DNA of 64,000 nucleotides from Lobosporangium transversale (GCF_002105155.1 NW_019028997.1:496001-560000); one strand, 5' to 3'. Numbered from the stretch's first letter, positions 2,086 to 54,598 are shown. Program-made: numbers and translations. Notes: a model not told the origin generated them from the sequence alone.

Positions 2086-2123
<38 letters not shown>

Positions 2124-2871: not shown

Positions 2872-3011
2872 TGTTGCAGTCATTTTAATGGATTTTTACT
2901 ATAGTTAGGATCTTTACCTCCCCCCTCTTTTATTTAACGAAGATCCCTGGACCATAATAAACCAAATCTTTCTTTCGTTTTCGTTACTTTTTATGACCCT
3001 GGCATGTTTCG
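2872..3011. mobile_element. Degenerate copy of a ~140-bp solo LTR (same family as 42267-42405)
   Basis: Aligns by eye along its whole length with 42267-42405 (TGTTGC...TTTATTTAACGAAGATCCC...TCTTTCTTTCGTT...GGCATGTTTC). It ends CG instead of CA and has no clear TSD. Confidence 0.55.
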
Positions 3012-6039: not shown

Positions 6040-6955
6040 TGGTCAAGGCTAATGCAGTTTTGGTCACTTTGGACTTGAGGGACAACCAGATTAAGAAGGA
6101 AGGGGTTATGGCATTGTTAGATGCGCTCAAGGTTAGTACGATTTTGACCAGTTTGGGCCTCTGAACACCCCAGTTATGGGACGACTATCGGGTAGGGGTG
6201 TGGCAAGTTCATACTTAAAGGATAGCTCAATTGAGAACGAAGGAGCCCTCGCGATCTCAGAGACACTCAAGGTTAACACGACTTTGGCAAATTTGAACTT
6301 GGAGTACAACAAAATTGGGAATGAAGGAGCCTTCGCACTCTCAGAGGTGCTTAAGACTAACACGACTTTGACCATAATGTACTTGGGGAACAAAAAAATT
6401 GGGAATCAAGGAATCCTCGCATTCTCAGACGCACTCAAGGTCAACCAGACTCTGACAAGTTTGAACTTGATTTGGAACTCAATTGGCAAGGAAAGAGCCT
6501 TCGCACTCTCAGAAGCGCTCAAGACCAACAAGGCTTTGACAAATCTGAGCCTGTGGAATAACTCAATCGGGAACGAAGGAGCCCTAGCACTTTCAGAAAC
6601 ACTCAAGGTCAATACGGCGTTGACAAGTTTAGACTTGGGGAGTAACTTGATTGGGAAGAAAGGAGCCCTCGCACTCTCAGAGGTACTCAAGGTCAACACG
6701 ACCTTGACAGATTTGAGCTTGGGGGATAACAAAGTAGGGAACGGAGGGGCCATCGCATTCTCAGAGGCGCTCAAAACCAACAAGGCTTTGACAAATTTGA
6801 ACTTGTTTCGGAACTTAATTGGGAATGAGGGAGCTCCCGTACTTTTAGAGGTACTCAAGATCAACATCGCTTTGACAAGGTTGGAATTGAGTCATATGTT
6901 AATCGCGAAGGAAGTATCTCTGGCAATATCAGAGACACTCAGAACCAGGCACTAA
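6040..6955 (+). pseudogene. RNI-like leucine-rich-repeat array (28-aa repeats), detached C-terminal part of an LRR-family gene
   Basis: About 10 repeats of LSEALKxNxTLTxLxLxxNxIGNEGALA. There is no upstream N-terminal domain on this strand. Confidence 0.85.
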
Positions 6956-18317: not shown

Positions 18318-18660
18318 TTTCACTTGAACAAGACGGAATGAATCGACATTCTCATCACTTTGGAGTAAGAGTGAAGAATAAAAAGTCTTAATCAGTAATA
18401 TCATCACGACGCACTCTGTCCACCGTTTACTTGCCTCCACTCCTTTAACGCATCTAGCAACATTTATCATTTTGCAATCCTTCTTCTCCAGCCTAAAGAA
18501 AAACAAAAACACTTTTTCGGCTACTTTTTTTCGCTAAATATAATGTTACAGAAACTCTATACTGATCTAGAAATGGCTGTCATTCGAGACTTTAAAGAAT
18601 CGATTGATTGCATGGCTAAGTCTTTCATACTACTTTTACACGAAATACTTAATTTATTTT

Positions 18661-23700: not shown

Positions 23701-23851
23701 TTTTTTTTTCTTTTTTTCTTTTCCTCCCTCAACTTCATCTCTAGACAATTTTGAACCATCCTGCTACTGAATTATCATCCTTTAGCATTTTTATCAACCT
23801 TTCCCTATTTTCTGTCCTCCGTCCATTTATACCCTTGTTTTTGAAATCACA

Positions 23852-26435
23852 ATGGGAAGCGACAGAACATCACCACGATGCCTATCACCTCGAACTAAAC
23901 CGTATGAAAGGAAAGAAGAAAGAAAAGGGGAAGCGAAGGAAGAGTCTTCAAGCACCAATGACCCTAAAATCCTCGAGCCAACCGAGCTAAAGATTTTTTG
24001 TATTGTTGATGGAGAAGCAACTTCTTTTTCTGTAAAGATTCTTTCCAATTGTTCAGTCGATGAACTCAAGCAAGTCATCAAGGCAGCGAAGAAAAATGCA
24101 TTTAAGGATATTGACGCTGACCAGCTCACCCTCTACAGGGTCTCTATTCCTGACGAAGACAAGACCGTCGTTGAGTCAGAAATTGTGTCGAAAGAGGCTC
24201 TCGTACCCGCATCAATGGAGCTTTGGGAGATATTTAATTCTGAACTTCCAAGGAAAACGATCCATGTTTTTGTCAAGCCACCGCAGCGAGGTATGTATTA
24301 GCTCTTGATGGACTGATTGTTGATATTTTCAGCTGATGAAGCTTGGTTTATATCTTAAACGGCCATGTGCATAATATCACCATTTGGTTTGTGTCTTGAT
24401 AACTCAACGTTCTTTCTAATTATTCGCCTTTGATACTTAGCTCAGAAAAGAAAACAAGATGGAGATGCTGGTGAGTGCTTTTGGCTGAGAACCTGGTTAT
24501 TGATCAATTCAGAGTGATGTGCAGTGCAATAAATCAAAAATATTGACTTTGATCACTCTATCTCCTTTATCAGAGTCACCCTCTAAAAAAGCTCGTCCAA
24601 GTATAAGTAGCAGAGGTACTCTTAGGGATGCGATTACAGAAGCGGGGCTTGTAACGAAAGGGATAGTGAATGGTAGGCCTGTCCTCTCGCCTCTCAACTC
24701 GAAAGAGAGGGTCAAGGTGCTTTCGTACATGGGGGAGGAGTTATCAGGAGATAGTATTTACTACAGCATTGTTAGCGTGGCTTGCGAGCTCCGAAATTCC
24801 GGTGGTATCAAGGATTCCAAACTATTGACTGCTCCTGAGGGTTGTATCTTCCCTGTTGCCGGAACAAGGCATCTTTATATCAGAGATGAATATAAAAAGC
24901 TTTATGACCATATTACATCTACATTCAGTACCCCTCATGGAGCTAGTTTGAACCGACTCTTTGTCACTGGAACGCCTGGAATTGGGAAGTCAGCCTTTTT
25001 GGTCTATTTTGCCATCCGCCTCCTTGCAGAGCATGACGAGGAGAATCCACCGATTATTGTTTTCCATGAAAAGAAGAATACCGAATGTTATGCCTACGGA
25101 GGAACAACTTGCCAACGTTATGGAGAGAGAGTAGATTTCAAACATTTTCTTGAGCAACCTGAAACGTGGTATTTAGTTGACAGTGGTAACCATCCTCAAC
25201 CAGATCAAGCCAGGACGATATTTGCGGCATCACCAAAAACTCTCTATGGGCAGTACGATGAATTCACCAAGGAAAATTCACGCAGTAGCTACTATCACAT
25301 GTCACTCTGGAGTTTGGACGAGCTTAAGGAATGTAGAGCCAATGTAAAGTTTTTTCATCCAGTGGATGAAGAATTTTTGGAGGAGCTTTTTTACAAGTTG
25401 GGGGGAGTGCCAAGACAGGTCCTACAGGCTCCAGCCAAAGAACTATTCAAGAATCAAGGAGATATTAAGGGTGCTAGAGACTCTGCGTTTAGCCGCGTCG
25501 AAACTGCCATTGAAAAACTCCGGAACCCAGCAGATCTTGTAGCGCTCTTTGCACGAGGAAAAGAAGCGAGTGAATTTAGTGGTCGTTTACTCCATAGAGT
25601 CCCCACTTCTGACCACCTCAACTTCCATCTGGTGTGGGCATCTCGTTGGGTTGAATTAAGGGTTGTCGACAAAATAAAAGATGACACTTGGCTCGATGTG
25701 TTGGCGAAACTTGTCAAAAGCGAAGAGGATATAGCTAAAGGCCCACTGTTTGAAGTCTATGCTCATCACTTATTTCGATGTGGTGATATTAGATTTCCCT
25801 TTAGGGATCTCCAGTCAGGCGAAACAGGATTTCTTGATTTTCCAGCAAACCCAGAAGTGGTGCATATCCGGACTTCAGATGAATTATTAGGGCTCACTCA
25901 AGCAGCTGGCAAGTTGTTTGTACCAGAACATTCTAAATTTCCGTGCATTGATTTTGCATTGGGACCCAACAAGCTATTTCAGGTCACAGTATCAGAGAAG
26001 CATCCGATCAAGCAAGCACCATTCAAGGAGATAATTGAATGTATTACTGGACCCTGCTTGAAGGGAGACCAATCAAAGTTGAAGGGAGACCGATCAGAGT
26101 CGAAGGGAGACCGATCAGAGTCGAAGGGAGACCGATCAGAGTCGAAGGGAGACCGATCAGAGTCGAAGGGAGACCGATCAGAGTCGAAGGGAGACCGATC
26201 AGAGTCGAAGGGAGACCGATCAGAGTCGAAGGGAAGTGATGATACCATTTTCCTCTATTTTGTGGTGCCAGGAGACGTATATGGCGATTTTAAAGTTCAG
26301 AACTTTCTTACCACCAAAGATACGGTCGTCAAGAATCCATATGTATGCTTAAAACATGTAAGACAGCGTGTCATAAAAATCGACATCGAAGCTGCATATT
26401 CAGGAGGAGCAGCCGGTACGAATCTGAAGAATTAA
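23852..26435 (+). CDS. Crinkler (CRN)-family protein copy 1 (~776 aa): ubiquitin-like CRN N-domain + P-loop NTPase + PD-(D/E)xK-like nuclease; exons 23852-24290, 24441-24470, 24574-26435
   Basis: IFCIVDGEATSFSV...LTLYRV...IHVFVKPP header, Walker A GTPGIGKS, WYLVD Walker B-like, GGVPR, and FPCIDF...LFQVTVSEKHPI nuclease-like motif. Canonical splice sites give an intact frame. Confidence 0.9.
26060..26227 (+). repeat. 21-bp coding VNTR (KGDRSES x7 plus one variant unit)
   Basis: GAAGGGAGACCGATCAGAGTC is repeated 7 times perfectly after one variant unit. Confidence 0.97.
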
Positions 26436-26990: not shown

Positions 26991-28026
26991 CACTATCATG
27001 CAAACCTGATTCAATAATTCATTCCCATGTGCATTTCTTTTTTTCATTCCTAGAAACCGTATATGCATACAACACTCTTACTTTGGTTTAATAAAGCTCC
27101 CGTCTTCTTCTACGTCGTAGTTATGCGTTGTGACATTAGCTTGTCTCATTTGGAAAGCTAATGACTTTTTTGTCCATTCAGGTCATTGAATCAGTTTCAC
27201 ATGTGCCCATTCGGTGGCCAAAGATCTTTATTCTTTTGTGAGCCATAACCTTACATCAATAAGTAGTATTCCAACCATGGGCATAACTGACAGCTTGGAG
27301 TCTCTTATGGATACCTATGATGAGTTTGCGGCAGAAGTCCACTGGGATCCTGTACCATTCAACCGATATTCGCTCCCATAGTTCATCACAGCTCTTAGCT
27401 CGCTCCGGATACCTAGAGAGCCGCCTATCCAATTCTGCCCACATGTGTTCAATAGGGTTGAGGTAAGGGGATTGTGCTGGCCACTCTAGAAGTGTACCTT
27501 CCTCTTCTGTCAGATGTACTGACTCCAAATACTTCCTAACAATCTTCGCCGTGTGCTTCGAGTCATTGTCGTGCTGAAAAACGATATCGCTTTTAGTTAG
27601 GCCCCAGTCATCAAGCGACATCTGTAGATCCTCCTGGAGTAGTTTGATGTAAAGTTGTGCGTCCATATTATTGTCAATCTTTGCAATGTATCCAGGTCCG
27701 TACCATGAGAAGCATGACCACACTTTAACGTTACCACTCCCAAACTTGACAGTGCCTTGCACCGACCTGCGAGTGAGGCGTCCCGGAGTGTCGTCCCAGA
27801 TCCACTGCACGCCATCAGAGCAGATTCGGTTTATTTTCGATTCACATGTGAAACTGATTCAATGACCTGAATGGACAAAAAAGTCATTAGCTTTCCAAAT
27901 GAGACAAGCTAATGTCACAACGCATAACTACGACGTAGAAGAAGACGGGAGCTTTATTAAACCAAAGTAAGAGTGTTGTATGCATATACGGTTTCTAGGA
28001 ATGAAAAAAAGAAATGCATGATAGTA
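26991..28026 (-). mobile_element. Internally deleted Tc1/mariner element with ~200-bp TIRs and TA TSDs
   Basis: Inverted repeats at 26991-27205 and 27843-28026, the right one carrying a ~29-bp deletion. TA flanks both sides. The transposase C-half (27256-27845) has VKVWSCFS, FQHDNDSKH and WPAQSPYLNPIEHMW. The N-half and first Asp are deleted. Confidence 0.93.
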
Positions 28027-28845: not shown

Positions 28846-29217
28846 TATTTTCTCACACATCGCCTAACCTTAAAATAAAGGATCAATTGCAATTGTCGCT
28901 CCTTTCTTTCCTTTCTTTCCTTTGCTTCACTTCATTTTTGCACTCTCTCCCTCCTCCTTTATCACTTTTTTCATATTTCACCCCAGTTTTGCTCCCATCA
29001 ATTTTGCTCTTTTATTTATTCCAAGCCTTCATCTATTGCCATTCCTTTCCTTTCCTTTCCTTTCCTTTCCTTTCCTTTTTTTTGCCTTACACATTTTTCA
29101 TTTTTGTTTTCATACAGCGACCACGAGTGTGAAAGAGTATAGAATATACCTTTGCCTATTTAACCATCATTCTCCCTGCATTTCAACCACACTCAGTCCC
29201 ACTCATCTTAATTTTCA

Positions 29218-31737
29218 ATGGCCACCACAAGGAGCCAAGCACAAAAAAAAATGACTGCAAATAAGCCTGAGGATGCCTCCACACTCAATAAACGAAAAAG
29301 AGTAAACCAGCACCCACAACGAAAAAAGCGCGCCATCCCACTGCTGCTGCTGAACTGCGTTGTCGAGGGAGAAGCAACGTCGTTCCCAGTAGAGATTTTC
29401 TGCGATAAAACGGTCGGGATGCTCAAGCAAGCCATCAAGGTAGCAAAGAAGCCAGAACTTGATCATGTTGCTGCAGATAAGCTCATCCTCTACAAGGTCT
29501 CCATCCCTGACGAAGACAAGACCGTCGTCGAGTCAGAAATCGAGTCAAAAGAGGCTCTCGCACCCGCGTCAATGGAGCTTTGGGAGATATTTAATTCTGA
29601 ACTTCCAAGGAAAACTATCCATGTTTTTGTCAAGCCACCACAGCGAGGTATATCCTTGGCTCTTGATGGACTGATTGTTGATATTTCCAGCTGATGAAGC
29701 TTGGTTTGTATCTTAAACGGCCATGTGCATAATGTCGCCATTTGGTTTGTGTCTTGATAACTCAACGTTCTTTCTCATTATTCGCTTTTGATACTTAGCT
29801 CAGAAAAGAAAACAAGATGGAGATTCTGGTGAGTGCTTTTGGCTGAGAACCTGGTTATTGATCAATTTAGAGTAATGTGCAGTGCAATAAATCAAGAATA
29901 TTAACTTTGATCACTCTATCTCCTTTATCAGAGTCACCCTCTAAAAAAGCTCGTCCAAGTATAAGTAGTAGAAGTGCTCTTAGGGATGCGATTACAGAAG
30001 CAGGGCTTGTAACGAAAGGGATAGTGAATGATAGGCCTGTAATCTCGCCTCTAAACTCGAAAGAGAGGGTCAAGGTGCTTTCGTACATGGGGGAGGAGTT
30101 ATCAGGAGATAGTATTTACTACAGCATTGTTAGCGTGGCTTGCGAGCTCCGAAATTCTGGTGGTATCAAGGATTCCAAACTATTGACTGCTCCTGAGGGT
30201 TGTATCTTCCCTGTTGCCGGAACAAGGCATCTTTATATCAGAGATGAATATAAAAAGCTTTATGACCATATTACATCTACATTCAGTACCCCTCATGGAG
30301 CTAGTTTGAACCGACTCTTTGTCACTGGAACGCCTGGAATTGGGAAGTCAGCCTTTTTGGTCTATTTTGCCATCCGCCTCCTTGCAGAGCATGACGAGGA
30401 GAATCCACCGATTATTGTTTTCCATGAAAAGAAGAATACCGAATGTTATGCCTACGGAGGAACAACTTGCCAACGTTATGGAGAGAGAGTAGATTTCAAA
30501 CATTTTCTTGAGCAACCTGAAACGTGGTATTTAGTTGACAGTGGTAACCATCCTCAACCAGATCAAGCCAGGACGATATTTGCGGCATCACCAAAAACTC
30601 TCTATGGGCAGTACGATGAATTCACCAAGGAAAATTCACGCAGTAGCTACTATCACATGTCACTCTGGAGTTTGGACGAGCTTAAGGAATGTAGAGCCAA
30701 TGTAAAGTTTTTTCATCCAGTGGATGAAGAATTTTTGGAGGAGCTTTTTTACAAGTTGGGGGGAGTGCCAAGACAGGTCCTACAGGCTCCAGCCAAAGAA
30801 CTATTCAAGAATCAAGGAGATATTAAGGGTGCTAGAGACTCTGCGTTTAGCCGCGTCGAAACTGCCATTGAAAAACTCCGGAACCCAGCAGATCTTGTAG
30901 CGCTCTTTGCACGAGGAAAAGAAGCGAGTGAATTTAGTGGTCGTTTACTCCATAGAGTCCCCACTTCTGACCACCTCAACTTCCATCTGGTGTGGGCATC
31001 TCGTTGGGTTGAATTAAGGGTTGTCGACAAAATAAAAGATGACACTTGGCTCGATGTGTTGGCGAAACTTGTCAAAAGCGAAGAGGATATAGCTAAAGGC
31101 CCACTGTTTGAAGTCTATGCTCATCACTTATTTCGATGTGGTGATATTAGATTTCCCTTTAGGGATCTCCAGTCAGGCGAAACAGGATTTCTTGATTTTC
31201 CAGCAAACCCAGAAGTGGTGCATATCCGGACTTCAGATGAATTATTAGGGCTCACTCAAGCAGCTGGCAAGTTGTTTGTACCAGAACATTCTAAATTTCC
31301 GTGCATTGATTTTGCATTGGGACCCAACAAGCTATTTCAGGTCACAGTATCAGAGAAGCATCCGATCAAGCAAGCACCATTCAAGGAGATAATTGAATGT
31401 ATTACTGGACCCTGCTTGAAGGGAGACCAATCAAAGTTGAAGGGAGACCGATCAGAGTCGAAAAAAAAGGGGAGACCGATCAGAGTCGAAGGGAGACCGA
31501 TCAGAGTCGAAGGGAGACCGATCAGAGTCGAAGGGAAGTGATGATACCATTTTCCTCTATTTTGTGGTGCCAGGAGACGTATATGGCGATTTTAAAGTTC
31601 AGAACTTTCTTACCACCAAAGATACGGTCGTCAAGAATCCATATGTATGCTTAAAACATGTAAGACAGCGTGTCATAAAAATCGACCTCGAAGCTGCATA
31701 TTCAGGAGGAGCAGCCGGTACGAATCTGAAGAATTAA
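29218..31737 (+). pseudogene. CRN copy 2 (tandem duplicate of copy 1), frameshifted in the VNTR; exons 29218-29647, 29799-29828, 29932-31737
   Basis: Exon 3 is nearly identical to copy 1. A +7-nt insertion (A6G) at ~31461 shifts the frame, giving a stop at 31541 instead of 31737. Confidence 0.85.
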
Positions 31738-32869: not shown

Positions 32870-33237
32870 GCAATGTCAGGCTTCCCAGCTGCTTGGCGTC
32901 GATTTCAGTCAGAAAAAAGAGAGGCGACACATAGACCATCACTCCTATTCTTTGATCCTCCTGGTTTGGATGGCTCTTATATGAGCTGCGACTCTAATAA
33001 CAAGGCAAAAGAGATCCTTGTACATATTTTGTCGCATAGTCTCAGCTTTTGCTCACTTTAGGAGCATCTGGCTGTGGAAAGACTCGAACAGTTATGGACA
33101 TGCTCTCGCAAAACTGGTGATTTTATTTCAATGCTGGTCGAGATGACCGCGGATCAGATGATGTCTGGTCTTTGATTACTTCTGTCAATCTTGGGGCTAG
33201 TGTTGACCTATCGGTAAACACTAATATTGCTATGATA
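32870..33237 (+). pseudogene. Fragment of another CRN-type P-loop NTPase gene, truncated by the pogo element
   Basis: LGASGCGKTRTVMDMLSQNW*FYFNAGRDDRGSDD Walker A segment with an in-frame stop. It ends at the pogo TIR. Confidence 0.6.
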
Positions 33238-33559
33238 TCCGGACATCCCACTGTCAAACTTGTTCGAATAATAATTAGGTTTTACTGAATTGGGTGATAT
33301 TCTAAACTTTATAAAATATATATACTCAGATGATACTTGCGTTCCTTTCAGTTACAAAAGGAACGAAACACGTTCGATATTGTGGAATAGGCTTCCAAGA
33401 CCTTTTTTTTCGGGCTCGGCTTTCCCTCCCTTGTTTCTTGGTCTTGCCTTCCCTTGGCTCTATCGTTGCCTATTGCATTTTCTCACTCACATCTGCTAAA
33501 CATATTGAGACGATTTTGTTTATTGCATTTGGATAGTTTTCTCTTATCATGTCGCTTCA

Positions 33560-36699: not shown

Positions 36700-38542
36700 A
36701 TCGCAATGAAATATGAATAATTATATTTTAATTAAAAGGATTCTGGAATTCTTCGTCTCGTTGGGAGCCATCCTGCATATCTTTTTGTGGAGATACCTGT
36801 TCCCTATTCTCGTCTTCACAAGCTCTTACAAGCTTTTTCAAAAAAATGGCGCACACTACTCATGTTACTTTTTTTTTGCATTATCCAGCATGGCCTCCAT
36901 TCCCTCCGGAGTGCGCATATCATGCCCACCAGACAACTTGGCCAGTAGCTCAACCGAAGTATGAAGTGACTCCTTCGATAGAGGTGAACTATGCGTGCTG
37001 CTCACAGGGGGTGGAATGGGTTCTTGGACTCCATCGGAAAGATCAGGAAAGTTACAATCCTCTACAGAAGGGCATGGCCCATTTTTATCCTCCAAAACAT
37101 CCTGCACATCTTTCTCCAGCCGTTTGCCTCATTCACTGAGGTAACCAAGTGCTCGAAGTACGTCCTTTCTTGCCTCTCATAAAGGTGACGTCGCGTGTAC
37201 CGGAGCTCATGGTTCCGCTCTGCATTGGTAGTCGACATGGTTTTGAAGGGCGGCCGCATCTCTTCAGGAAGGACCGGCGTTTCAGCAAAGCAATTCCTTA
37301 GTGTTGTCGCTTTAACGGAATTCCATGCATATGGGATAATCGACCACGCGTGTCCATTAAAAATAGCCCTCGCCATGTCAAACGTTCGGATGAGATGCGA
37401 CTCACGGATAAGCATCTCAAGGAATGCTCCCTTGAACACACTAATAACACCTGCGTCAAGGGGCTGCGTAACAGATGTTGGGTTCACCAGGAGTCGTCGG
37501 ACGCGGAGATGCTTCCAGGATTAATTGATAGAAGGGTCGCGCATATCAATGTTGTTGTGTTGTGGAGCTGAGTCTAGGAGAAGTAGGCTTGGCTCCGTGA
37601 GCTGGTCATCGAGTTCTTTCAACCATTTCACAAAGATATGGTTTGTCATCCACCCCGATTCAGACTTCTTCACAACCATCCTACTTGCCGACTCTTCGTC
37701 AATGCCCTGGGTGATATTTTTGCCTAGTATATAAAATATATCACATCAAGTTAATGTCTAATATTTAATATTTACCAAGGTTTTCAGTAGTTGCTTCTCC
37801 TTACCAATGACTAGTGTCTTCAATGCACTCATGGATTCTGCCTTGAGGAGCGATGTGCCCGAAGCGTTGATACAAAATAGAATGGAAACACGGCAGCTCC
37901 TATTTGCCTTGATACCGGCTTTCGAGACCTGCGTTGTATAAGACTTGTGCTCCAGCTCCTTGAAATAAAATCCTGTCTCATCGCAGTTGTATATGTTGTC
38001 AGGCTTGGGAACATAGCCGCCGAATCTCGACTAGTTCAGGCTCAATCGCCTTAAGGTCAACCGATGCTGCTTCTCCGTGGAGCTGGCAATACGTTATGTT
38101 ATGACGCTTTTTGAAAGCATCGAACCAGGAAGCTGAAAAAGACGGCATCATGTTGTTGGAGTCCGAGTCAAAAGGATTTTTCTGGTCGGTGAGGACAATA
38201 TAGGTGGTTTTAGCCGCTTGCTTTATCATCCTTTTGTTGACTGGATTGTTTCGCTTCTGCTGATCTTCCAGGCAGCCATTTTAAGAGCACCGCCTCAAGC
38301 TGAAAATTCTTTCGCTGAGTCAAATAACATGCGCCCTTTGGATACAACGGAGCCTGTTGTCGAATCACATTTCTCTTTCTTTACATGTCGTAAAAAGTAG
38401 CCTTCGGAAGCATATATCCAACCAGGTCACCGAAGCTTCTAAAGGTTACATTGTGGGAGATATCTTTTTGTCGAAGCAAAAGATATTCGTATATATCAAG
38501 GACCTCGATTTTTTGTTCTAGAGTCAAACACACCTTCGCCAT
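36700..38542 (-). pseudogene. pogo-type transposase (CENP-B-like HTH + DDE_1), frameshifted
   Basis: Motifs LTLEQKIEVL, FSASWFDAFKKRHNI...HGEAASVD, NIYNCDETG, GWMT..IF.KWL, LLLLDSAPQH and TSVTQPLDAGVISVFK. The C-terminal boundary is approximate. Confidence 0.9.
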
Positions 38543-39559
38543 TGGGATGGCGTGGTTGTCAACTGAAGGAAGGATAAGGGGAGCATACATATCGCAATTC
38601 CTTGCACAATCTAGAAGCCAAGTACCTCTCCTTCCGCTTGCGTTCAATCGTTTTTATTTCAGACTTTGTATATTTGGTCTTCTTGGTCACTTCATAAGCA
38701 AGAGCCGACTCTGTGGAGCGTTTTCCAGTTGCCATTTTGATGCTTGGATGCGATTGTTTAATGTAAGGGAACAGGTGATATGTTGTGAATAGTAGCAAGC
38801 GGTGGTGGGTTCAAAAATGATTTATTGTTCAAGTCTGCCCTAATCTGCTACAATAATGATGGCTTTTATACTATTCGGGGACGCCGTGTGGAAGTCATAG
38901 GGCGTAGTGGGGCTGGGCAAAGAGGCGTAGTGGAGGCGTAGAATTGTCCGGATATTTCGTCAGACAAATCTTGTCGGACATTTCACCAGATGTGCATTTC
39001 GGGGAACCCGTAAATGCAATATCACCTGAGTATATATATATATTTTATAAAGTTTAGAATACCACCCAATTTAGTAAAACCTAATTATTATCCGGACAAG
39101 TTTGACAGTGGGATGTCTGGATATTGCAAGTTCGACTATACAATAGTCTAGAGAGTTTTCGCAAATATTTTTTTCGTCAAGGATTTTCATCGGGATATTG
39201 AACCTTACTTTCGCCGACGTAAAAATTGCAGTCTGTAAACAACTTATCGTATGTGCTATCCCTTAAACAGTCAACCTGGCAAATTTCATTATAAATGGGC
39301 TTAAAATCCAGCAATTCATGGGCATTGTCTTGAAATTTTATTTCGATGTCGAAATAAATGACCGAAAACTAAACTGTCATGGAGCTATCCTGGCTTCTTT
39401 ATTTGTGCCAATAAAAAAACTCTTGAAGGCTTTCGCATGACACTAGCATCCTCTTAGGGGGCCCATTGTGTTGTTTATTTATTGACTGGTGTAATAGCAG
39501 TGATAATATTCGCCATAGTATCGACTTGAAAGGAGGGCAATCTGAGTTGATTCATTCTA

Positions 39560-39960: not shown

Positions 39961-41330
39961 AGACCTGGCACCAATCATGCGAGGTATTTCTTTTTCTGAG
40001 GATTCCTTGTGTTAAACGGCCAGACAGAAAGCTTAAAAGACATACAGACACAACGGTGAAACAAATGTATGTGAGCAAACAGCTGCTGTGTTTATTTGTT
40101 GTCTGCACATGCCTTCTTTCATCGCGGGCTTTTTTTTCCTTTTTTGTTCGTCAATCACTGTGTGCACGAATAAGCAGCTGAAGCATCTCTTTGTTTCTGT
40201 ACATGCATAAACACATTTTACATCGCGGCGTCTTATTTATTTTCTGCAATTCCAAAACACAAAACACAAGCGTTTTCCATTGGTGCCTCCAGAAGAAATA
40301 AACAAACTTTATTTTGGCGGCCACTCCACAATCATGCCATGGTTATAACAATCCCTAGGAAAGGATGAAACGCGTCGGTATTAATCTCGCTTCTGTAATT
40401 CTAAATGCATATATTTTGGCGATTGGTATCAACTATCAAGTTCGCACATACACACACCAAACGACCGCCAAAAACCACCACTCTCGCTTCTGCTCTCCCT
40501 CCATCCACAAGGCGCTGCGCAATATCACCATTAACAAGGCACCGTCCAGTAAGAAAGGGTGCTTAGCTAGCTTTTACTCCAAGCAATAAGCACATCACCT
40601 ATCTCCGCCATTGATGCCGGAACCTGAGAGCCAACGAATATCTCTGCTTTAACGCAATAGTACTGGGGCTGTTGGAGCAAAAAGCATCATTTGAAGCCAT
40701 TCTCTGATAAAAAAGACTTTTTTTCTTTAGTTGTTACCTATAATCACCGAGTCATATCTGTCAATGCATTTATTACCCTTGTTCAAAATTATAAATCATT
40801 AAATTCCTCACAAAGCAAGGGCCACTGCAAACAAAAGAAGCTGAAAAAAAATTGTATAACAAAGGATCGACATCAGCACTATATGCTGTATACCGAGATG
40901 GTTTCACTTTGGTATCTCAATGCTATTTCTTCCAATCTGCCGTTCATGCGAGAGCTTGTATTTATTTGTCAATCTCTGCTATTGACTGGGACAAAACCCC
41001 AATCCAAACAAAGGAACTGAATAAAGATTGATGTGGCCTGTGAAGCAAAGGATCGATATCAAAACTATATGAGACAATGATAAAACTCATCATCAACCCA
41101 GGATATAAAAAGGGATCATTGTCTTCCTCCTTCAAAGTCCCATCCCTTTTACCACTGCCACTTGTTCCTGTATCTTTCCCTCAATATTCTTTATCTATTC
41201 GCTTTGAATCTTTACACCATAAAAAAGCTCATCCTTTTATACCTTTGTCGCTCTTTTTTTTTTCTTTTTCATTTCTTTTCATCACCACCATTTTTCCTTT
41301 TTTCTTTCTCTTTTCGCTTAGATATTGACC

Positions 41331-44313
41331 ATGGGGCTGAAGTCCTTCTTCAAACTGGTTGCGGATCGCGGGGTTTTACCTTCGGAAACTGGCGTGGGCA
41401 CTTTCTTGGCGGCAAATCCTGACGTTAGGCCCGATTACTAATCTTCGATTAATTCGAAAGGTTGAGTGGAACGAGAACTATAATAAAATGCTTCAGGGCT
41501 ACCTAAGGGAAGCTAGTAAGGTGTTGGGAAGGAACGTAGCCTCTGAGGAAGGCCGTTTCAGTGTAGCTCTCCGCATTTTTACTTCCGGCCATCAAACGTC
41601 GGCCCAAGCGTTACCATCGAACAATGAGTTCGATAACTTCAAGCAGCGTTTACTCAATGGAAAGGATCTTCGCCATAGAATGGCTCAGCAAAGGCGAGCG
41701 CAGCGCCGCAGAACGTAAGAAAGCTCAAGCTATAGTTTTTGGCCTTGAAACCAGACGTCCCCAATACTAATCGTTAGTCCCTTTCTTGAATAATGTAGAG
41801 GCGTACCATCATTCTATATAGCGGAAGGGTCACATAGGAACCAATTCCGGCCCATCTTTTCTGACAAGGCGAGCATATTGAATGGGCGCACAGTTGATAT
41901 CAGTAACTACCGTCAGCACGATAGGCCGGGCCTTAAGCATCCACCACGTCGGAGAAAGGCAAAAAAGAAGCAACAGAAAAAACGAAAGCGGAAGCACAAA
42001 GGCAAGAAGCCCCACAGGGCTAAAAAAGAAGGTGCACCAATTAGGAACTTGAAGGATGCTACGAAGGTTGATCACAGCTACAGCAGTAAGCACCCTATCA
42101 AGGCCTTAACAACTGGGTCCCTTAAGGCCTCCATGGCAAGGAAAGGCGGACTGGACGCAGATGAAAGGGATAGTATTGCAAGCCAGGTCCGAGGGGCAGT
42201 TGTTGTCCTCAACCGACTACGCCGCTATGCATACTGGGCGATCGCCTTGGGCATTGAGAGGATCATTGTTGCGATTAGCAGTCATTTACATGGGTTTTTA
42301 CTATAGCAAAGATTTTTACCCTTTTTATTTAACGAAGATCCCCGGATCATAATAAACACATCTTTCTTTCGTTCTCGTTACTTATTATGATCCTGGCATA
42401 TTTCAATCATGCGGTTACCAGGGGCAGCAAAGTCGAGGAAAAAGGCACTGGACGAGGTCTTGGATAGCAATGATTATTCCTTCCGTCTCGCCACCCTTCT
42501 TTTGAGTGGTCAAGGTGGCCCCAATTCAGCTTACGCGAGGGCAAAAAAACAAGGAAAGGCGGTAGAAACGCCCCATCATCACCTCGCTTATGAACATTTC
42601 AAGGCCACCACTGAACTTTCCCCAATAAAGGATATAGACATCACATTGGGGGACGTCCAAGGCTTTGATCCCAAAAAGATCACATTTCCAAGAGCGTCAG
42701 ACTTACTAATGGGCCAAGTACAGACATCATTAAGGCAGCACTACAGGAACGCAATAGTATAGCTTGTGTAGGGGTATTTTCATGCATATTCTGCAATCAA
42801 ATGCTCTTTATTCACACCTTTTTTTTTTTTTTTTAGTTTGATGTCGAGAAAACAAACGAAGATATGAGCGACATTGAGTTTTTTTTTGCGGGAGAACAAA
42901 AGAGTGAAAAAATACTCAGACTTTCCTACGTCCCCCTGGTCACCCGGGTATGTGTATCTGTCTGAACACGCCCTAGTTGACATCCTCTGGGCGAACGAAG
43001 ATACCAAGCAGCTGCTGGAGCGTATTCTGCCTCTCAATAATGCTTCCAAGACTGCAATGTATGAGTGTGTACAGGGAACAAAAGGGGTTTGATACAGGCT
43101 CTCTTTTGTGACATTGGAGGTGATCGCATGGTTCGTGGATATCAAGACAAAGTATCCCTGCAGTCACAGGACAAAGATCTAACTCGGTTCAAACTCAAAG
43201 GGACGATTTCTACCAACGGTCTAGTTCTGAATCTACTTGCCTATGACACAACCCAGACGAAGAGACAGCAGCAGTCTGACGTAGATGAAGAAGACCCCAG
43301 CCAAGAACTGGAGCTTTCTCAGGGATTTCTCAACACGACGTGTTCAAAGGCGGCCGGTGAAGACCTAACAGATGAAGACTATGCAAACATAAACTGGAAG
43401 AGGAGCTCCAAGCTGCTTGAAAACGTTGAGCTCACATTCAACAAACCAGGGCGATGCCCATCCGCAAACACCACAACTATCGTCGGATGTGATCCTGGTA
43501 TTGTTAACGCCCTTACGTTTTCCTCGCTGGACCCTCACAACCCTAACTTGCGGCAAACGGTAAAGGTGAGAAGCAGGTTCTTGTACCTCCCTGTCCTCCG
43601 CTTCAATCACCTGTTGAACAAAAGGAAGCGTGAAAAAGGAATGATTGAGGTTGAGAGCGCCATCCCTGTGTTTGGAAGGGAACGTATAATGAGTACTTTC
43701 AATGGATGAACGAGGAGTCTCAGACACAGACAGGATCAACGAATTTGGATGTGCTTCAAGAGTTCTACGAGTCCAGATGGCACCTGAAAAAAAAATGGGA
43801 CCTACGAAAGGCTCAACGAGCTACGTTCGGCTACGCGGTACAGCGAGTGTTGAAGATGCTTGGGGATAAAGGAGTACTTGTCGTCGGCCTAGGGTCCTTT
43901 GAAAGTAGTAAAGGAGTTCCCAGCAAGCACACTGCTATAACGAGGCATCTTGTCACACAGGTATGGCTGTTTTTAAAAAAGTAAGCAAAGCTGGAAAGCC
44001 ATAAAAGCCTTGCTAATAAACGACTGCCATTTGAAACGCTTAGGTCAAAGCACGAGGACACTTCGCTGTAGGAGCGCACGAATTTTACACCAGCGCCCGC
44101 TGTCCCCGACCCCTCTGCGATAGCTTTTTAGAGACGGTGTACCCTCGCTCTAAATATTGCAGGACATGTAAGGTATTCTTCGACCGTGACGCAGTAGGGG
44201 CGGAAAACATCGCAAGAATCGGTCTTGCTCAAATTGAGAGACAAGAGAGACCTGCAAAGTACAAGCCCACGGAAGAGTCGCCTGCTCCGGCTGCAAAGCG
44301 CGCACGACGCTAG
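41331..44313 (+). pseudogene. Fanzor (eukaryotic TnpB-like RuvC RNA-guided endonuclease), ~860 codons when reconstructed; introns 41715-41798, 42757-42836, 43961-44043
   Basis: RuvC-I IVGCDPG (Asp 43491), LVVGLGSF strand, relocated Glu in AHEFYTSARC (44080), Zn finger CPRPLC...CRTC, RuvC-III FDRDAVGAENI (Asp 44188), and a basic C-terminus AAKRARR. It is disrupted by a solo LTR, about three 1-nt frameshifts and an N-terminal frame break. Confidence 0.88.
42267..42405. mobile_element. 139-bp solo LTR inserted in the Fanzor ORF
   Basis: Starts TGTTG and ends TTTCA, with a 5-bp TSD ATCAT (42262-42266 and 42406-42410). Removal restores GIERIMRLPG in frame. Confidence 0.85.
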
Positions 44314-44437
44314 ACACAAGTATTTGGGTGCCGGCACACCCACAAAAAATTTGTAAGTTCTGTTTATTTTCGTCTCCTGTATCCATCCTCTCTAATCTTT
44401 TGCCCCTGAATTTCTGGACTAACTTTAAAAACCGTAG
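44290..44437 (+). ncRNA. Candidate Fanzor omegaRNA region / 3' non-coding tail containing a putative 85-nt intron (44353-44437)
   Basis: Overlaps the Fanzor stop codon and is partly conserved in a second copy at 54485-54598. Hairpin TGGGTG-CCGGCA-CACCCA. The RNA assignment rests on analogy to known TnpB/Fanzor loci only. Confidence 0.4.
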
Positions 44438-45634
44438 ATAAAGAAGTATACAGTCACACAAATATATTGGTGGAATCCTTGCAACTTCAAAAAGTCCTTC
44501 CTGTTCATCCTGAAAAGTCCTATACACCTCGGCTTCCCGTTGCAATAACTCTTTTCTGTCCTCTTTATGCTGTTGGTGCAACAACATCGAGTTGACATGT
44601 GTGCTTTGTGGGGGATTGGAAATGATCATTATGGCAGTTGAGGTAAAGAAGATAGCAAAAATATGAACGAGGCAACTGTTACGTCCTGAGGCTAGGGAGT
44701 GTACCCAAATGGAGCACTCCCCTTTTTATTCATAGATCAGAGCAATTATAAGGCTCCGACCTAGCTAAAATAATAAACAACTTTTGATCTCCTTGACTTC
44801 CGACTTACCATAAAATATTTCAGCAACGAAAAAAAAAAAATTCTTATTGAATCAATTCAATCCTTGGCTTGACGAAAATTTCGTCAAATACGTTGCTTGA
44901 TGAAAAAATCAAAATGAATTTTCATCGGGACCAACTGGAAAAAGAAATAAGGTTCATTTTTGCTCTTCCCGATGAAAACTTGATGTAAAAATCGATTTGT
45001 CCAATAAATATTTCAGCCACTGTCAATCCAGCCGTTACATCACCTTTTTGCCACCAGTTGTTTCTTATAATTTGTTTGTTTCAAAGCGCGTCAATCCCTT
45101 CCTCCAAGCATAACAACCAATCAAAGCCACACACATCCACTTTCTTCTCTTCCTCTCCTTCCCCCTTCCTTTTCCTTTTCCTTTTTCTATTCAATGCTTT
45201 AATACTATTCTGTGCAAAATAATAATACACACATTAACACATCTCGTCTCGCTTTTTTTTTTTTTTTTTTTTTTTTTTTTTGGAGAAAGTAATGTCTAGC
45301 CGCTATAGTACATGTAACATGTACAAAAGTCCATATCTGTTTGAATATGCCTTATATTCATCCTATAACTGTCTAGTCATCTTTTTTTTTTTTTTTTTTT
45401 TTTTAAAAAAAAAATAGTAATAATAATAATGATAATGATAATAAAATAAAAACCAATAAATAATTTACAAAGAACAAAGAACAAATGGAGGCACTATTTG
45501 AAAGATTTCTATCAACTTTGGCTGAACTTCCGCAGCAGATTTGGAAAAGCCAGTCACATCAAATCACTATATTTGATGCTTTCTTTCTCCTTCTTCACCA
45601 GCTTATTAACTTTTTTTGTCTAATAATCACACCA

Positions 45635-48222
45635 ATGACAGGCGAAATCACTATCTTTTGCATTATTGATGGAGAATCCACAGCGTTTCCTGTGAGGATT
45701 CCACCAACAAAGACCGTGGACGAACTCAAAAAGGCAATCAAGAAAGAATATGAGCCAGACCTAGATTACCTTTCTGCTAAAAAGCTCAATCTTTACTATC
45801 TCTCAATCCCTTCCGCGCCGAAAAGACAAATCATGCTCAACTATCTAACAATCGAAGAAAGATCAAAGGAGCCAGAGGAGCTAGACGACGCAACAAGCGA
45901 GATTTCTGAATTCTTTGGAACGGCGCCACCAAAGAAAACCATTAATGTCATCGTCCAGCGGCCGTTGGGAGGTAAGGGATTAGCTGTTTGTTCTCAAAGC
46001 TTTGTGTATGACATCATTGATCAGGAAGCAATTCTCGAAATATCATGATTTTTATCTTTCTGATTTTTTTTTTATTTTTTTTTTTAATCACAGCTGTCAT
46101 CTGGACGAACACCTCAAGTATCCTTGCATTGGTTAAGCAATATGAACGACTCATCGGCACTAAACAAGCTCCGGTATGCTGCCTATTGTGTTTACATTTT
46201 GGGTGTACATCGCTATAAGTTATGAGTGGACGGAAGATTTTGTGCTGACTCTTTATTATACTTGTTATAGCTTGTTACATCTTTTGGTTCAGAATTCCCA
46301 CTTTGCCGCAGAGAGGAAACTCTTGACGTATTATGGAATGGGAGTTGTTATAATGGCGTCTTTGAGCGATTTAAAAACCGCAAGAAGAGCGACAAGGGCC
46401 TAAATCCAATCCCACTTCTTGCCTGTGGGCCAGGTACAGGCAAAAGCAGGTCCCTCCAAGAAATTGGAGGAATGCTTCGTGAAAAGGCCAACTCTTACGG
46501 TGACCAGAGTATTAAAAGCGCCTTCTCCAATATGGTCTCAATCAATATTTGCTACGGCAATGGCACCGCGGTCAGCCAGTTCGATAACAAAATTGGAGGC
46601 GATGCATCTATTGCTGTTAGATTACTCTACGGATATTTTATCAGTAACAAAGACTCCGATAGCAAACCTGTTGACTTTTTTCTGCAAAAGGAAGGCATCA
46701 ATCTACTCTCAGTGAGCAGAGCCATGGAGGTTATTCATGCTGATATTATCAGACGAGGCACACCCACTAACAATCCGATTGTGCTGGTCATCAGCATCGA
46801 CGAAGTGAATCATTTACACAATGCTTACCCAGGTACCCTTCGAGAAGTTGCGAATGCTATTGGGAAACTGAGCTTGAGAACCATAGAGCCTTTTTGTATC
46901 CCTATTATGGCAGGCACAATCCAAGGACCCATCGAAGAAATGCTCATGGGATCAACATATCGTATCCTACACCTACCTCTTCCTCTTCTTACTGACGACG
47001 ACGTGATCGAAATTGGCCGTAGGCTTCCTCCGACTATAGACGGTAAGGCTCTACATCTGACTGAAGACTACCTAAAGCATGATATACTGCTCCACCGTAG
47101 TATTGCAGACATCGGTGGAGTGCCAAGGGCTGTGGAGCATTTCTATGAACACTTTGTGAATCGCTTAAAGAAACTAAAGAAGATCCCTGACAAGGATGAG
47201 AAACTTACGGAATGTCTGCGCAATGTCGATATCATGGCCGTTATGCAGAGCCTGGCAGTTCGTTTAGACACACTTTATCCTTTTGGGAACTACGTGGAGT
47301 TCATGACACCTGTAGTGGAGTGGCAAGGGCCATTCTTGGTATCCCAGTCAAAATGAATGATATTATTGGAGGTGGCACAACCTATAAAGATCTCAGGACA
47401 ACTGGCCTAATAAAGCTGGAACGAGCTGAAGAGCATGACATATACCATATACGTATCCCATATTTGTGGCTGGTTTTATTGATCAGCGCTTCCTATAGCC
47501 AATCCGAGTCCCCTTTGAAGTACTGGACCGCTTTTATCGATCCAAAGCAAGATGTCTCCTGGGCAGGCTGGGCTCTACGTTTATGCCTTTTCTCTTACCT
47601 CGGAAAACAGACTGTGTCTCTGCAGGAACTTTTTGCAGGTGCTGAATTTGATCCCGAGTTTCCAGAGTTTAAAGTTGAAATTCCAGAGCACCGCAATGTT
47701 ACAGTGCATCAATTGCTCGAAATGTCCCCCAATCACGAGATCGCAAAGGATGTGGACGGCAAGGAGCATACTAACTTTCTTCAAGAGTTTCACAAGATAT
47801 TTGTTAATGGCAAGGGTGCTCCAGCTGACGGCTATATGCAGTTGCGTTTACAGAACAGAAGAGACATTGCGTCTTTGTGTCTATTTTGTCAAATGGAATG
47901 GGCCGAAGAGAAGGATTCAAAGACGTCTAGCCCTATCAACCAAAAAACAATTGAGAAAGAAATTGAAAAGATTGCCGAAGTGAACGAAGTTCTTAAGAAA
48001 CGATGTCCATCCTTGGAATGTGCCTTTGGTATATTTTCAAATCGACAAATAGCTCCAAAGGCGAACCTCCGTTCTCATACATTTATGATGCCTGCAGTTG
48101 GGGAGAAGATCTGTAAAGAAATCGTGAGCGAGCGGAAGAAGCGACGATTTGAGGATGAAGATGATTTTAAGAAAAGGGTGAAAATGTTTCCAGAAAATGA
48201 GTTGGCGTTGCTTATATTCTAA
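45635..48222 (+). pseudogene. CRN-family gene of a different subtype (CRN N-domain + NTPase + nuclease-like + helix-hairpin-helix tail), frameshifted
   Basis: ITIFCIIDGESTAFPV...INVIVQRP header, Walker A CGPGTGKS, Walker B VISIDE, GGVPRA, NGKGAPADG, and a PAVGEKICKEIVSERKKRRFEDEDDF HhH-like end. Frameshifts lie near 46450 and 47315. Confidence 0.8.
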
Positions 48223-50034: not shown

Positions 50035-52473
50035 TTATACCTCTTTAGTTCTGCCCTCAAGTCTACCTCGCTGTAATTCTGCGTTTAAGTCTACCTCCAT
50101 GACATATTGCTTGATACTTGATAGTTTTTTTGTCGGTTTAGGATCCACCCGATCAGCCCCAGCCTTAGCTTTTGGAACAACAAAAATCAATACAACGTCC
50201 TTCTCTGAGCGAATCCACTTTTTTTCTTGAAGCTTTTTAAGAAGTTCTTTGCAAGATTCACTCTTGATACCATGATCTACGTTTGCCGTAATCTGGAGTA
50301 GATAATTCGGCGCTATTAGCATATCAACGCAGGCAAAAGTCTTGCTTTTTGGGATCCATAGTTCTCCTTTCATCGATTTCTCGTAAACATCAAAAGCTTC
50401 GAAGAATTTAACCGTCGGCTTGGCATTGATGGTGATGGTGATATCTTGCTTTTTCTCTACATCTAGACTCCTGGCCACGAAGGTACAGTCGCCTCTCCGT
50501 AGTATGCGACGTATACATATCTCGAGCATAGCTCCTAGATATATTCTAACTTTGCCATTGACTAATCGATCCAATATCATGTTAAAAGTATTGTCGTCCG
50601 CTGCTTCGTACACCTTTTCGACCTTTTCGAGAATGTGATTAGAGGCCCACTCTAACACAAATTGCTGGTGATCTCCTATTGGACGACGATGAAGAAGTGG
50701 GCTGCTATATTGTAGTGAAACTTTGGCCTGTTCAAAATATTGTAACAGCTTCAATGGATCGTTGAGGTTGTCGAGGGCTGTTTCTACGTGACTGTACGCT
50801 TCCCTCCTAGCTCCATCAAGATCTTTTTCATTAAAGTGCAGTCGGTTCGCTGGTTTCTCGAGAACATACCTTGGCACACCACCTATCTTCTCATAGAGTT
50901 CCATCATAAATTCTTCGCTGACGATGTTAAAGGTCCGAACCATTTTTCTACACTGTCTTAACTCATCCAGCTCCCATGGTGCCATGTAATAAATCCATAC
51001 CACCCTCTTTACAATTTCTTTATACATGTTGGACTCGGAAAATAACGTCTTTGGTGATACTGAGAAGATAGTTCGAGCCTCCATAAGCTCCGGCTTTGGT
51101 GAGCTGTCGACTAGGAACCAAGTGTTAGGTAGGTCTAGGAAGGCGGCGAAATCCTTTATATCTCCATTTTGAACAGTAGATAACCCACCAAAAGCGTAGC
51201 ACATTGAATCTTCTTTTCGCTGGATGATGACAATAGGTGGATCATCCTCAGTACTGGTTGCAAGTAGTCGGATGGCAAAATATATGAGAAAGGATGACTT
51301 CCCTATACCAGCCGTCCCTGTAACAACAATACGGTTTCGTGCATTGTTCTCAGCGTTGCAAAACTGTTTGGTGATTAAATCGTAGAGATCCTTGAATTCC
51401 TTTCTTACATATAGATCTTGCGCATCGATCACCGGAAGATCCATCCCTGGTAGACTGGATATCACATAATCTGATAATATTTTGGAACCCTTGATACCAC
51501 CAGAATTTCGGAGCTCGCGAGCCACGCTAATAATGCTGTAGTAAATACTATCTACTGGTAACCTCTTCCCCATGTACGAAAGCAGCTTGACCCTCTCTTT
51601 CGAGCTTAGACGCGAGATGGCAGGGCTACCATTCACTATCCCTTTCGTTACAAGCCCCGCTTCTGTAATCGCATCCATAAGAGCATCTCTACTTATACTT
51701 GGACGAGCTTTTTTAGAGGGTGACTCTGATAAAAGAGATAGAGTGATCAAAGTTAATATTCTTGATTTATTGCACATCACTCTAAATTGATCAATAACCA
51801 GCTTCTCGGCCAAAAGCACTCACCAGAATCTTCATCTTGTTTTCTTTTCTGAGCTAAGTATCAAAAGCGAATAATGAGAAAGAACGTTGAGTTATCAAGA
51901 CACAAACCAAATGGTGATATCATGCACATGGCCGTTTAAGATATAAACCAAGCTTCATCAACTGGAAATATCAACAATCAGTCCATCAAGAGCCAAAGAT
52001 ATACCTCGCTGCGGTGGCTTGACAAAAACATGGATCGTTTTCCTTGGAAGTTCGGAATTAAATATGTCCCCAAGCTTCCTTGACGCGGGTGCGAGAGCCT
52101 CTTTCGACACAATTTCTGACTCAACGACAGTCTTGCCTTCGTCAGGGATGGAGACCTTGTAGAGAGTTAGCTTCTCTGGTGGGATATCATCAAATCTAGC
52201 AGGTAAATAGATGGCTTGCTTGAGCATCCCAACCGATTTATCGGAGAAAATCTCTACTGAGAACGACGTTGCTTCTCCCTCAACAACGCAGTTCAGCTTC
52301 AGCAGCAGTGGGATGGCGCGCTTTTTTCGTTGTGGGTGTTGGTTTTCTCTTTTTCGTTTATTGAGTGTGGAGGCATCCTCAGGCTTATTTGCAGCCATGT
52401 TTTTTTGTGCTTGGCTCCTTGTCGAATCATTTGCAGCCATGTTTTTTTGTGTTGAGCTCCTTGTGGTGGCCAT
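50035..52473 (-). CDS. CRN copy 3 (~729 aa), chimeric; exons 52473-52005, 51853-51824, 51725-50035
   Basis: Same header, introns and 30-nt micro-exon as copies 1 and 2. Walker A GTAGIGKS, GGVPRYV and FACVDML...LQIT. Intact frame. Confidence 0.9.
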
Positions 52474-53507
52474 TGAAAATTAAGATGAGTGTGGTTGAAA
52501 TGCAGGGAGAATGATGGCTAAATAGGCAAAGGTATATTCTTACTCTTTCACCCGTGGCCACGGTATGGAAACAATAATGAAAAATATGTAAGGCAAAAAA
52601 AAAAAGAAGGAAAGGAAAAGAAAGACAATAAATGAAGGCTTGGAATGAATAAAAGAGGTAAGTGGTGAAATATGAAAAAAGTGGTGGCGAAAATGAAGTG
52701 GAGCAAAGGAAAGAAAGGAGCGACAACTGATAAATTTGTTCCTTTATTTCAAGGTTAGGCTTTGCGTGAGAATTTTTTTTTTTTCAAATCAGCCACGTGC
52801 CATTTTCTTGGTCATTGTGACGTGAAAACCAACCACAATCTTTTAGTGCACGAAGAACTCACACATTTCTCATTTTCCATGTCCCTCAGATAAACTTTTG
52901 TTCACACTCGACTTGCTCATTCCTCTGCTTACAACTGCTCCCCAGGAGGACTGAAATGATCATTGAAGGGGACATTTGAAAAGGATTATAAATTTGAATT
53001 TGCCAGATGTCAACTGATCACTTTATCCGCTTTTACTATAATACAACTTTGATTACAGTTTATGATAGCCTTAAAAGCTTCTATTGCAATTGAGCCCCTA
53101 AGAACGATGCAGGACTGTTGTTAGAATGTCCACTGAAAGTTAAGTGGACTACTATAAAGACAATCGTTAACATACAATATGTGCGGTGTTATATGGAATT
53201 CCTGCATAAAATGGCTGTTTATTATCATTGCTTGTGCAGCAGAGGCAATATACCCTGCCAATATTTGTTCATTCCTCATATAGGCCATTCAGCTTTTTGA
53301 AGGAATATTGACACATTCTCTTGAGTTGATCATGTTATTTAGATGTTGTGCCTGTGCACCATACAACCCTTTATGCTCATCACATACTCCTTGAAGATCC
53401 AAAAAACTCCCAATCTTCATACTGAAGTTATTCATCGTACGTTAAAAAAATAAAAAAATTAAAAAAAAAAGAGCTGGCAATGCAAGCCACACTTGTGCAT
53501 GATAGAA

Positions 53508-54370: not shown

Positions 54371-54598
54371 TAAATATTGCTGGGCATGTACGTACTTGGA
54401 TAGCATCGCAAGAGTCGGTCTTGTTCAGATTAGGAGCCAAGGGAAGCTAACAGAATACGGAAGAGCCGCCAGCCTCTCTCCCCCCTGCAAAGCGCGCACG
54501 ACGCTAGACACAAGTATTTGAAAGTTCTCTTCCGCGTCTTTCTGATTATTTTTTTTTTTGCCCGTGAATTTCTGGGCTAATTTAAAAAAACCTTACAG
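54371..54598 (+). pseudogene. Second, truncated copy of the Fanzor 3' end and non-coding tail
   Basis: Matches 44151-44437: TAAATATTGC.GG.CATGTA, CATCGCAAGA.TCGGTCTTG, a 36-nt identical CTGCAAAGCGCGCACGACGCTAGACACAAGTATTTG, and TTTTGCCC.TGAATTTCTGG.CTAA. Confidence 0.85.

Follow-up and report, generated by a model that had tools for sequence, protein, structure and literature searches.

The locus at positions 41331-44313 of a 64,000-nucleotide (nt) stretch of the Lobosporangium transversale genome (GCF_002105155.1 NW_019028997.1:496001-560000; the whole stretch is referred to as the window, and positions are counted from its first letter) is almost certainly a dead copy of a Fanzor1 gene, and the family of Fanzor1 relatives to which it belongs very probably carries a FEN1/EXO1-like nuclease head in front of the RNA-guided nuclease core. 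As a Fanzor pseudogene the Lobosporangium transversale locus is itself ordinary and its family already catalogued; a Fanzor at this position was known in substance and is unsurprising, because the family already stands in a published Fanzor table, and the apparently new part is the family's head. A spliced, inactivated Fanzor gene had been proposed here from the nucleotide sequence alone, and the motifs, last exon, D-E-D triad and zinc finger named in that sequence-only reading are all found where it placed them. A further break at 41423/41424 and the second nuclease lost with it were not recognised in that reading. The parts of the locus are as follows:

41331-41423, + strand: opening stretch of the FEN1/EXO1-like head (MGLKSFF...), 31 codons with the start codon, from alignment with paralogues and with the homologue P0114.
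41423/41424, + strand: junction of a frameshifting deletion that removed about 210 codons, including the catalytic core of the head, from the P0114 alignment and contig breaks.
41425-41714, + strand: leftover C-terminal part of the head (helix-turn-helix tail and following helices), aligning with P0114 from residue 241/242.
41715-41798, + strand: intron 1, 84 nt, GT..AG, its junction read across by paralogue model P0161.
41799-42261, + strand: first part of exon 2, with the linker, a stretch resembling a nuclear localization signal (NLS) and the start of the Fanzor core, from translation and homologue superposition.
42267-42405, no strand assigned: solo long terminal repeat (LTR), 139 nt, TG..CA, with a 5-nt target duplication ATCAT at 42262-42266 and 42406-42410.
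42406-42756, + strand: second part of exon 2, a REC-like helical region, running on from the first part without a break in paralogues P0017 and P0161.
42757-42836, + strand: intron 2, 80 nt, GT..AG, phase 0, the spacing at the joined junction equalling that of homologue P0046.
42837-43960, + strand: exon 3, with REC/WED, the RuvC-I Asp of DPG and the Gly-bearing RuvC-II strand, from translation and paralogue models.
43961-44043, + strand: intron 3, 83 nt, GT..AG, phase 0, from homology across the junction.
44044-44313, + strand: exon 4, with the relocated Glu, a four-Cys zinc finger, the RuvC-III Asp, a basic C-terminal tail and the stop codon, from the match to Pfam PF07282.

The three introns of about 80-85 nt that had been anticipated are borne out by lengths of 84, 80 and 83 nt with GT..AG borders; each carries stops in all three frames, and the joined exons align gap-free with relatives. 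Intron 3 also appears to be used in homologues, as had been proposed: in 13 of 15 paralogue models the flanking exons follow each other directly, in agreement with an uninterrupted homologue, and P0114, P0024, P0030 and P0059 align across its junction without a gap, while the other-species models P0016, P0027 and P0022 go into unrelated sequence at this position (43961-44043), as is expected of a missed intron. That the three introns are spliced is thus supported at the level of homology, since the paralogue models are predictions and not transcripts. The gene had been described as hidden, which does not hold, because 428 of the 428 residues of the public model P0003 (XP_021881279.1) are matched in the window, with the last exon already connected across 43961-44043. 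Read through with X at six breaks, the locus yields 864 stop-free residues that are 33% identical to a full-length homologue (E 3e-150).

The Fanzor signature can be read from the three-frame translation. The RuvC-I motif GCDPG has its Asp at 43491-43493, and the RuvC-II strand VVGLGSF (43880-43900) is without Glu, its Gly occupying what we take to be the canonical RuvC-II Glu position. The relocated Glu lies 35 residues from this Gly, in HEFYTSARC at 44080-44082, and is separated by six residues from Cys 44101 (E-x6-C, 44080-44103); the RuvC-III Asp is found in DRDAVGAEN at 44188-44190, and the zinc finger has C-x4-C and C-x2-C knuckles. A DPG motif combined with a Glu six residues ahead of the zinc finger is given as the Fanzor fingerprint in parts of PMC10711439, and replacement of the canonical Glu by Gly or Pro, with introns and NLSs being common, is described for Fanzors in parts of PMC10530073. 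With its three homology-supported introns and the basic NLS-like stretches that had been predicted, such as a Lys/Arg-rich one in exon 2 at about 41947-42009, the gene appears to be of the eukaryotic type. The last exon, as an 89-residue frame, matches PF07282 (Cas12f1-like_TNB) at 27.9 bits (cut-off 26.3), and its top sequence match among solved structures is a weak one to a Fanzor2 chain (E 0.26).

The Fanzor1 REC/WED/RuvC/TNB fold was assessed on models of the paralogue P0013 and the homologue P0114 and not on the window's own sequence. The P0013 model (89% identical to the window copy; predicted local distance difference test score, pLDDT, 79.9) has a C-terminal half that folds as a Fanzor/TnpB RuvC domain, so that the RuvC/TnpB fold expected of the C-terminus is upheld on this paralogue. 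Its Foldseek matches begin with SpuFz1 (E 9.5e-10), followed by PpFz1 and GtFz1, which together fill the top seven rows; in a wide structural search, Cas12/TnpB/Fanzor chains take the top 22 rows, with Cas12j, Cas12f and Fanzor2 at Z 14.0-11.7 and GtFz1 at 10.4. Placement in the FZ1 clade rests on the paralogue ORZ22893.1 (P0019), which is labelled FZ1 in the tree table of Saito 2023 (PMC10432273) and has 212 residues identical to P0003.

Five independent lesions mark the copy. The N-terminus encoded at 41331-41423 shares 90-94% identity with those of paralogues P0017 and P0011, and the start is common with P0114, whose residues ~32-240 align with nothing in the window. Loose contig ends of run X2 at 41423 continue into the deleted sequence, two contigs of run X7 break at the same point, and paralogues P0011, P0017 and P0161 retain pieces of the missing stretch. 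After the deletion the start codon is out of frame, and a stop follows after 36 codons in the three-frame translation; all seven acidic residues of the head lie within the deleted stretch, so that this copy does not itself qualify as a FEN-family protein. The Fanzor core, which would begin at about 42088 as judged from residue 436 of P0114 in the superposition on SpuFz1, is complete to about 44310 except for the LTR and three frameshifts, all four of which had been noted before and are confirmed. The insertion at 42267-42405 has TG..CA ends, a target duplication, an empty site elsewhere and the distribution of a dispersed repeat, with a second solo copy at 2876-3010 (84% identical); contigs of three of four runs (X1, X3 and X7) skip exactly 144 nt here, and the LTR is therefore absent from sister copies.

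The single-base frameshifts near 42879, 43087 and 43683 all fall in exon 3, a stretch that is unbroken in paralogue models P0132 and P0133 (98% identical). None of the listed X1 contigs shows the frameshift near 43087, where the base is inserted in 318 of 318 depth, and it is therefore perhaps an error of the assembly or a feature of this copy alone. The one near 43683 is apparently common to the P0001 locus, and the one near 42879 to P0013 and run X7. Because at least two lesions seem common to other copies, the pattern suggests that they were passed on by copying after damage rather than arising in one recent inactivation, and the recent inactivation suggested by the sequence-only reading is not borne out. 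Its companion claim that the frame can be restored survives for the Fanzor core (~42088-44310), which reads through, and fails for the full protein: with about 210 N-terminal codons deleted and the start codon out of frame, the natural protein cannot be rebuilt from this copy.

The intact relatives that had been foreseen do exist, as full-length homologues of 1,180-1,360 residues across the Mortierellaceae, with named hosts in Mortierella, Linnemannia, Podila, Entomortierella, Gryganskiella, Haplosporangium, Benniella and Gamsiella; Entomortierella parvispora alone has three full-length copies (GJJ77517.1, GJJ71033.1 and GJJ77590.1) that are 97-98% identical. Of the 17 proteins found with the RuvC-I frame, 16 are Lobosporangium transversale by name; the longer relatives reached with that frame begin with MG, DL(F/L)G, (H/Y)IDG, EAD, DSD and NDY motifs. 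These relatives are two-domain proteins with both active sites conserved and both nuclease folds predicted. The 1,183-residue homologue P0114, retrieved by profile search, has an AlphaFold model with a mean pLDDT of 80.9, in which residues 2-308 are predicted to adopt a FEN-like PIN fold with a helical arch and superpose on EXO1 at Z 21.5 (root-mean-square deviation, rmsd, 3.2; 279 aligned) and on FEN1 at Z 20.7, with Foldseek in agreement. Residues 435/436-1181 superpose on SpuFz1 at Z 17.5 (rmsd 3.6; 470 aligned) and on PpFz1 at Z 17.3, with 470-476 residues aligned for the pair. The family profile likewise matches XPG/FEN1/EXO1 at E 2e-6 to 7e-5, together with Fanzor2 and SpuFz1 chains. By Pfam alone the head is unseen in P0114, P0016 and P0017, and profile and structure were required to detect it; PF00867 is found in nine of the 19 aligned relatives at E<=0.01.

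The nine active-site positions of the head (seven acidic residues and the arch Lys/Arg) are kept in 16-19 of the 19 aligned relatives: E164, D166, D186 and D188 are invariant, D238 is present in 18, D80, K87 and R94 in 17 and D34 in 16, the misses in these last four being gaps. Since the relatives are only 19-48% identical to P0114, this retention points to selection on head catalysis, and the predicted head of intact relatives may act as a 5' exonuclease or flap endonuclease. Among 24 fetched proteins of 900-2000 residues, three head motifs occur in 19 and the full set of six head and RuvC motifs in 12.

The gene is multi-copy in Lobosporangium transversale, where 36 gene models bear different locus tags and include two adjacent pairs, giving up to 34 loci. 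This species also has a diverged second subfamily of the element; entries P0092 (XP_021886259.1) and P0119-P0129 stand for it and for a further Mortierellaceae subfamily. Contig depth over 40000-44487 is several- to tens-fold above the flank, a depth that is not a copy number, and the following non-coding parts and remnant of the element can be placed in the window:

40000-41330, + strand: upstream non-coding part of the repeated element, with depth 46-320 (runs X1 and X3) against 16-20 beyond 44488.
44314-44436, + strand: 3' non-coding right end, a candidate guide-RNA scaffold region by its position, from depth and remnant similarity.
54398-54592, + strand: second, diverged remnant consisting of the 3' end only, whose identity to 44202-44431 is 73% across 131 nt and 91% across 34 nt.

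The right end is set at about 44436, where depth drops from 705 to 16, single-copy contigs begin (44407) and the remnant similarity also ends, and it is conserved in the two copies (44202-44431 and 54398-54592). Contigs cross position 40000, which places the element's left end at or before it; the left end was not located, and no inverted repeat of the right end was found upstream within the window. The Pfam scan of five of five frames between 39599 and 41028 gave no match and thus no transposase domain, and the right end has no Rfam match beyond one chance hit. No locus of the relatives was found in metagenome contigs (exact 29-nt scan and protein-alignment scan) or in viral contigs (scan).

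A fragmented pogo/Tc5-type transposase (HTH_Tnp_Tc5, DDE_1) lies on the minus strand at 37065-38653, 2.7 kb upstream of the Fanzor gene and within a 90-nt inverted repeat (94%; arms at 33235-33324 and 39035-39124). As a possible partner this remnant was set aside, the enclosing inverted repeat leaving the Fanzor gene outside, which is not proof. To the right of the element is a short, unrelated high-depth repeat (44675-44861; depth 365-560 against 16-18 around it). The remainder of the window includes four Crinkler N-terminal domain genes (PF20147, 72-81 bits) at 45464-48222 (+), 23786-26435 (+), 29212-31541 (+) and 50035-52479 (-), three of which have about 1 kb in common at 87-97%; the gene at 45464-48222 has a weak AAA match and a C-terminal helix-hairpin-helix/DUF655 match, and is spread over more than one frame. 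Other mobile elements are a small, young-looking one at 27030-28018, in which perfect inverted repeats of 176 nt enclose a DDE_3 (Tc1/mariner-type) frame at 27256-27858 (-), and a hAT transposase remnant at 18066-21441 (-) with Dimer_Tnp_hAT at 18661-20064. Three leucine-rich-repeat genes (LRR_6) with 84-nt repeat units stand at 6137-6955 (+), 10250-12166 (-) and 15690-17453 (-), and housekeeping genes for a TsaD/Kae1-type tRNA modification enzyme and glutathione synthase at 1309-2642 (-) and from 54770 onward (+), respectively.

A 5' overhang is the type of end on which 5' nucleases act. Studied Fanzors are RNA-guided DNA cutters, of which SpuFz1 leaves 5' overhangs, according to parts of PMC10432273. 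By analogy, the Fanzor part of the intact relatives would make an RNA-guided DNA break, as in SpuFz1, with a guide RNA that, as in studied Fanzors, would come from the right end of the element and would be directed to sites that the element has vacated. The tethered head would then trim the cut 5' ends into 3' tails, as the chemistry of EXO1 and FEN1 suggests, and such tails would promote recombination by which the element is restored or copied. We regard this cut-and-resect role of the FEN-headed Fanzor as an evenly balanced proposition. The bolder form, in which a single FEN/EXO1-headed protein makes its cut at a site picked by RNA, resects the cut and so drives copying of the element to new places, making a self-sufficient transposase-free fungal element, would be unlikely.

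Several observations weigh against this interpretation as a whole. Studied Fanzor1s function without such a head, which is therefore unnecessary for cutting, and the head is known only from relatives: no fetched Lobosporangium transversale model has the complete head acidic set, and the longest of the 36 models reaches at most 619 residues. The head served as the query that brought in 11 of the 19 aligned proteins, so that its conservation is inflated; in the reverse test, eight of 11 long proteins found by the head alone carry a TNB domain. The DPG-to-Glu distance of 169 and the C-x4-C knuckle lie outside the strict search pattern for Fanzor-like TnpB given in parts of PMC10711439, and in a further subfamily of the Mortierellaceae RuvC-I carries D(A/G)G where DPG is usual, an exception to the Fanzor fingerprint that was read by eye, MAFFT having misaligned that subfamily there. 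No intron-skipping joint occurs among the 15 of 27 contig joints listed, and no run is recorded as RNA, neither of which bears on expression. The fold of the right-end RNA is no better than that of shuffles (z +0.7 to +1.95).

The head might instead belong to the insertion machinery, removing flaps in a transposase-free or Helitron-like mode of copying, with the fused protein both targeting and finishing integration. The lack of a transposase domain in all five upstream frames scanned and of an upstream inverted repeat within the window would fit, and the 3'-only remnant at 54398-54592, together with a right-end depth of 705 against about 200, offers a hint that recalls the 5'-variable Fanzor elements described in parts of PMC3627910. 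With the left end at or before 40000, however, terminal repeats are possible, and Fanzor elements that lack a transposase and are moved in trans are common, Spu-1 being one (parts of PMC10432273), a mode of movement that the lesions apparently common to several copies (at least two) also fit. Insertion machinery is a doubtful account of the head. The FEN fold, moreover, is not known to have strand-transfer activity.

An action on RNA is rather improbable. FEN-family nucleases are able to remove RNA from hybrids, and the head could trim the 5' end of the guide RNA or clear the RNA-DNA hybrid for turnover; the candidate guide region adjoins the end of the reading frame, so that the guide would be excised from a longer RNA or separately transcribed. 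Headless Fanzors nevertheless yield mature guide RNA, according to parts of PMC10432273 and PMC10711439, and the nearest structures, EXO1 and FEN1, are DNA-end enzymes. It is also very unlikely that the gene encoded an ordinary Fanzor1 with a dispensable N-terminal extension, from which local repair would yield the natural enzyme. The SpuFz1-equivalent part (~42088-44310) is complete save for the LTR and three frameshifts, and could therefore be active without the head, but the retention of the nine head positions in relatives 19-48% identical to P0114 and the out-of-frame start codon of this copy argue otherwise.

Among known systems, the family resembles SpuFz1 of Spizellomyces punctatus (PDB 8gkh, 9ceu-9cez) and PpFz1 of Parasitella parasitica (9cf0-9cf1) in the DPG motif, the relocated Glu, the RuvC-III Asp, the whole REC-WED-RuvC-TNB fold predicted in the homologue model, a multi-copy state that includes partial copies, and a fungal host. 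Unlike them, the relatives carry, before the Fanzor core, a FEN1/EXO1-like head of 300 residues as well as a basic linker, no terminal inverted repeats were found in the window, and the copy studied here is a pseudogene. It is the same family as the Mortierellaceae FZ1 entries in the supplements of Saito 2023 (PMC10432273) and PMC10711439, several of whose long proteins begin, by eye, with FEN-like motifs, the head being unlabelled in both tables. With EXO1, FEN1 and XPG (Rad2) the relatives have in common the predicted fold, the acidic metal-binding residues, the arch Lys/Arg and the helix-turn-helix Asp, but identity is only 15-17%, and whereas those nucleases are products of single-copy repair genes, the head is part of a repeated element and joined to an RNA-guided nuclease. 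The arrangement is also akin to the engineered IscB-T5 exonuclease, in which an RNA-guided RuvC nuclease has a 5' exonuclease attached to it; such engineered exonuclease fusions shift repair outcome, according to parts of PMC13599430, and, unlike that man-made protein, the headed Fanzor is natural, eukaryotic and predicted.

Under the terms searched, the main-text portions available of PMC10432273, PMC10711439, PMC11423790, PMC10691335, PMC13565253, PMC3627910 and PMC5499597 make no mention of a FEN-Fanzor fusion. The term 'XPG' is absent from the supplements of PMC10432273 and PMC10711439, and 'FEN1' from that of PMC10711439, one scanned file not being searchable; the two supplementary files of PMC10530073 mention neither the genus names nor XPG. 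Papers that co-mention Fanzor with FEN1 or EXO1 are, in the portions available, genome-editing reviews or tool papers. The fusion was not found in the full-text literature searched, though it may be recorded in subscription papers or in Repbase. XPG-like domains do occur in Academ transposons.

If a eukaryotic RNA-guided nuclease does have an EXO1/FEN1-like domain built in, it would represent a natural form of the engineered exonuclease fusions, and the near-identical intact copies of Entomortierella parvispora make the function of a headed Fanzor testable. Were the self-sufficient reading true, the protein would be a machine for gene insertion by cutting and resection that occurs in nature. 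Should the break be resected by the head, the job of the Fanzor would be to steer repair towards recombination, which bears on the role that Fanzors play for the elements that carry them.

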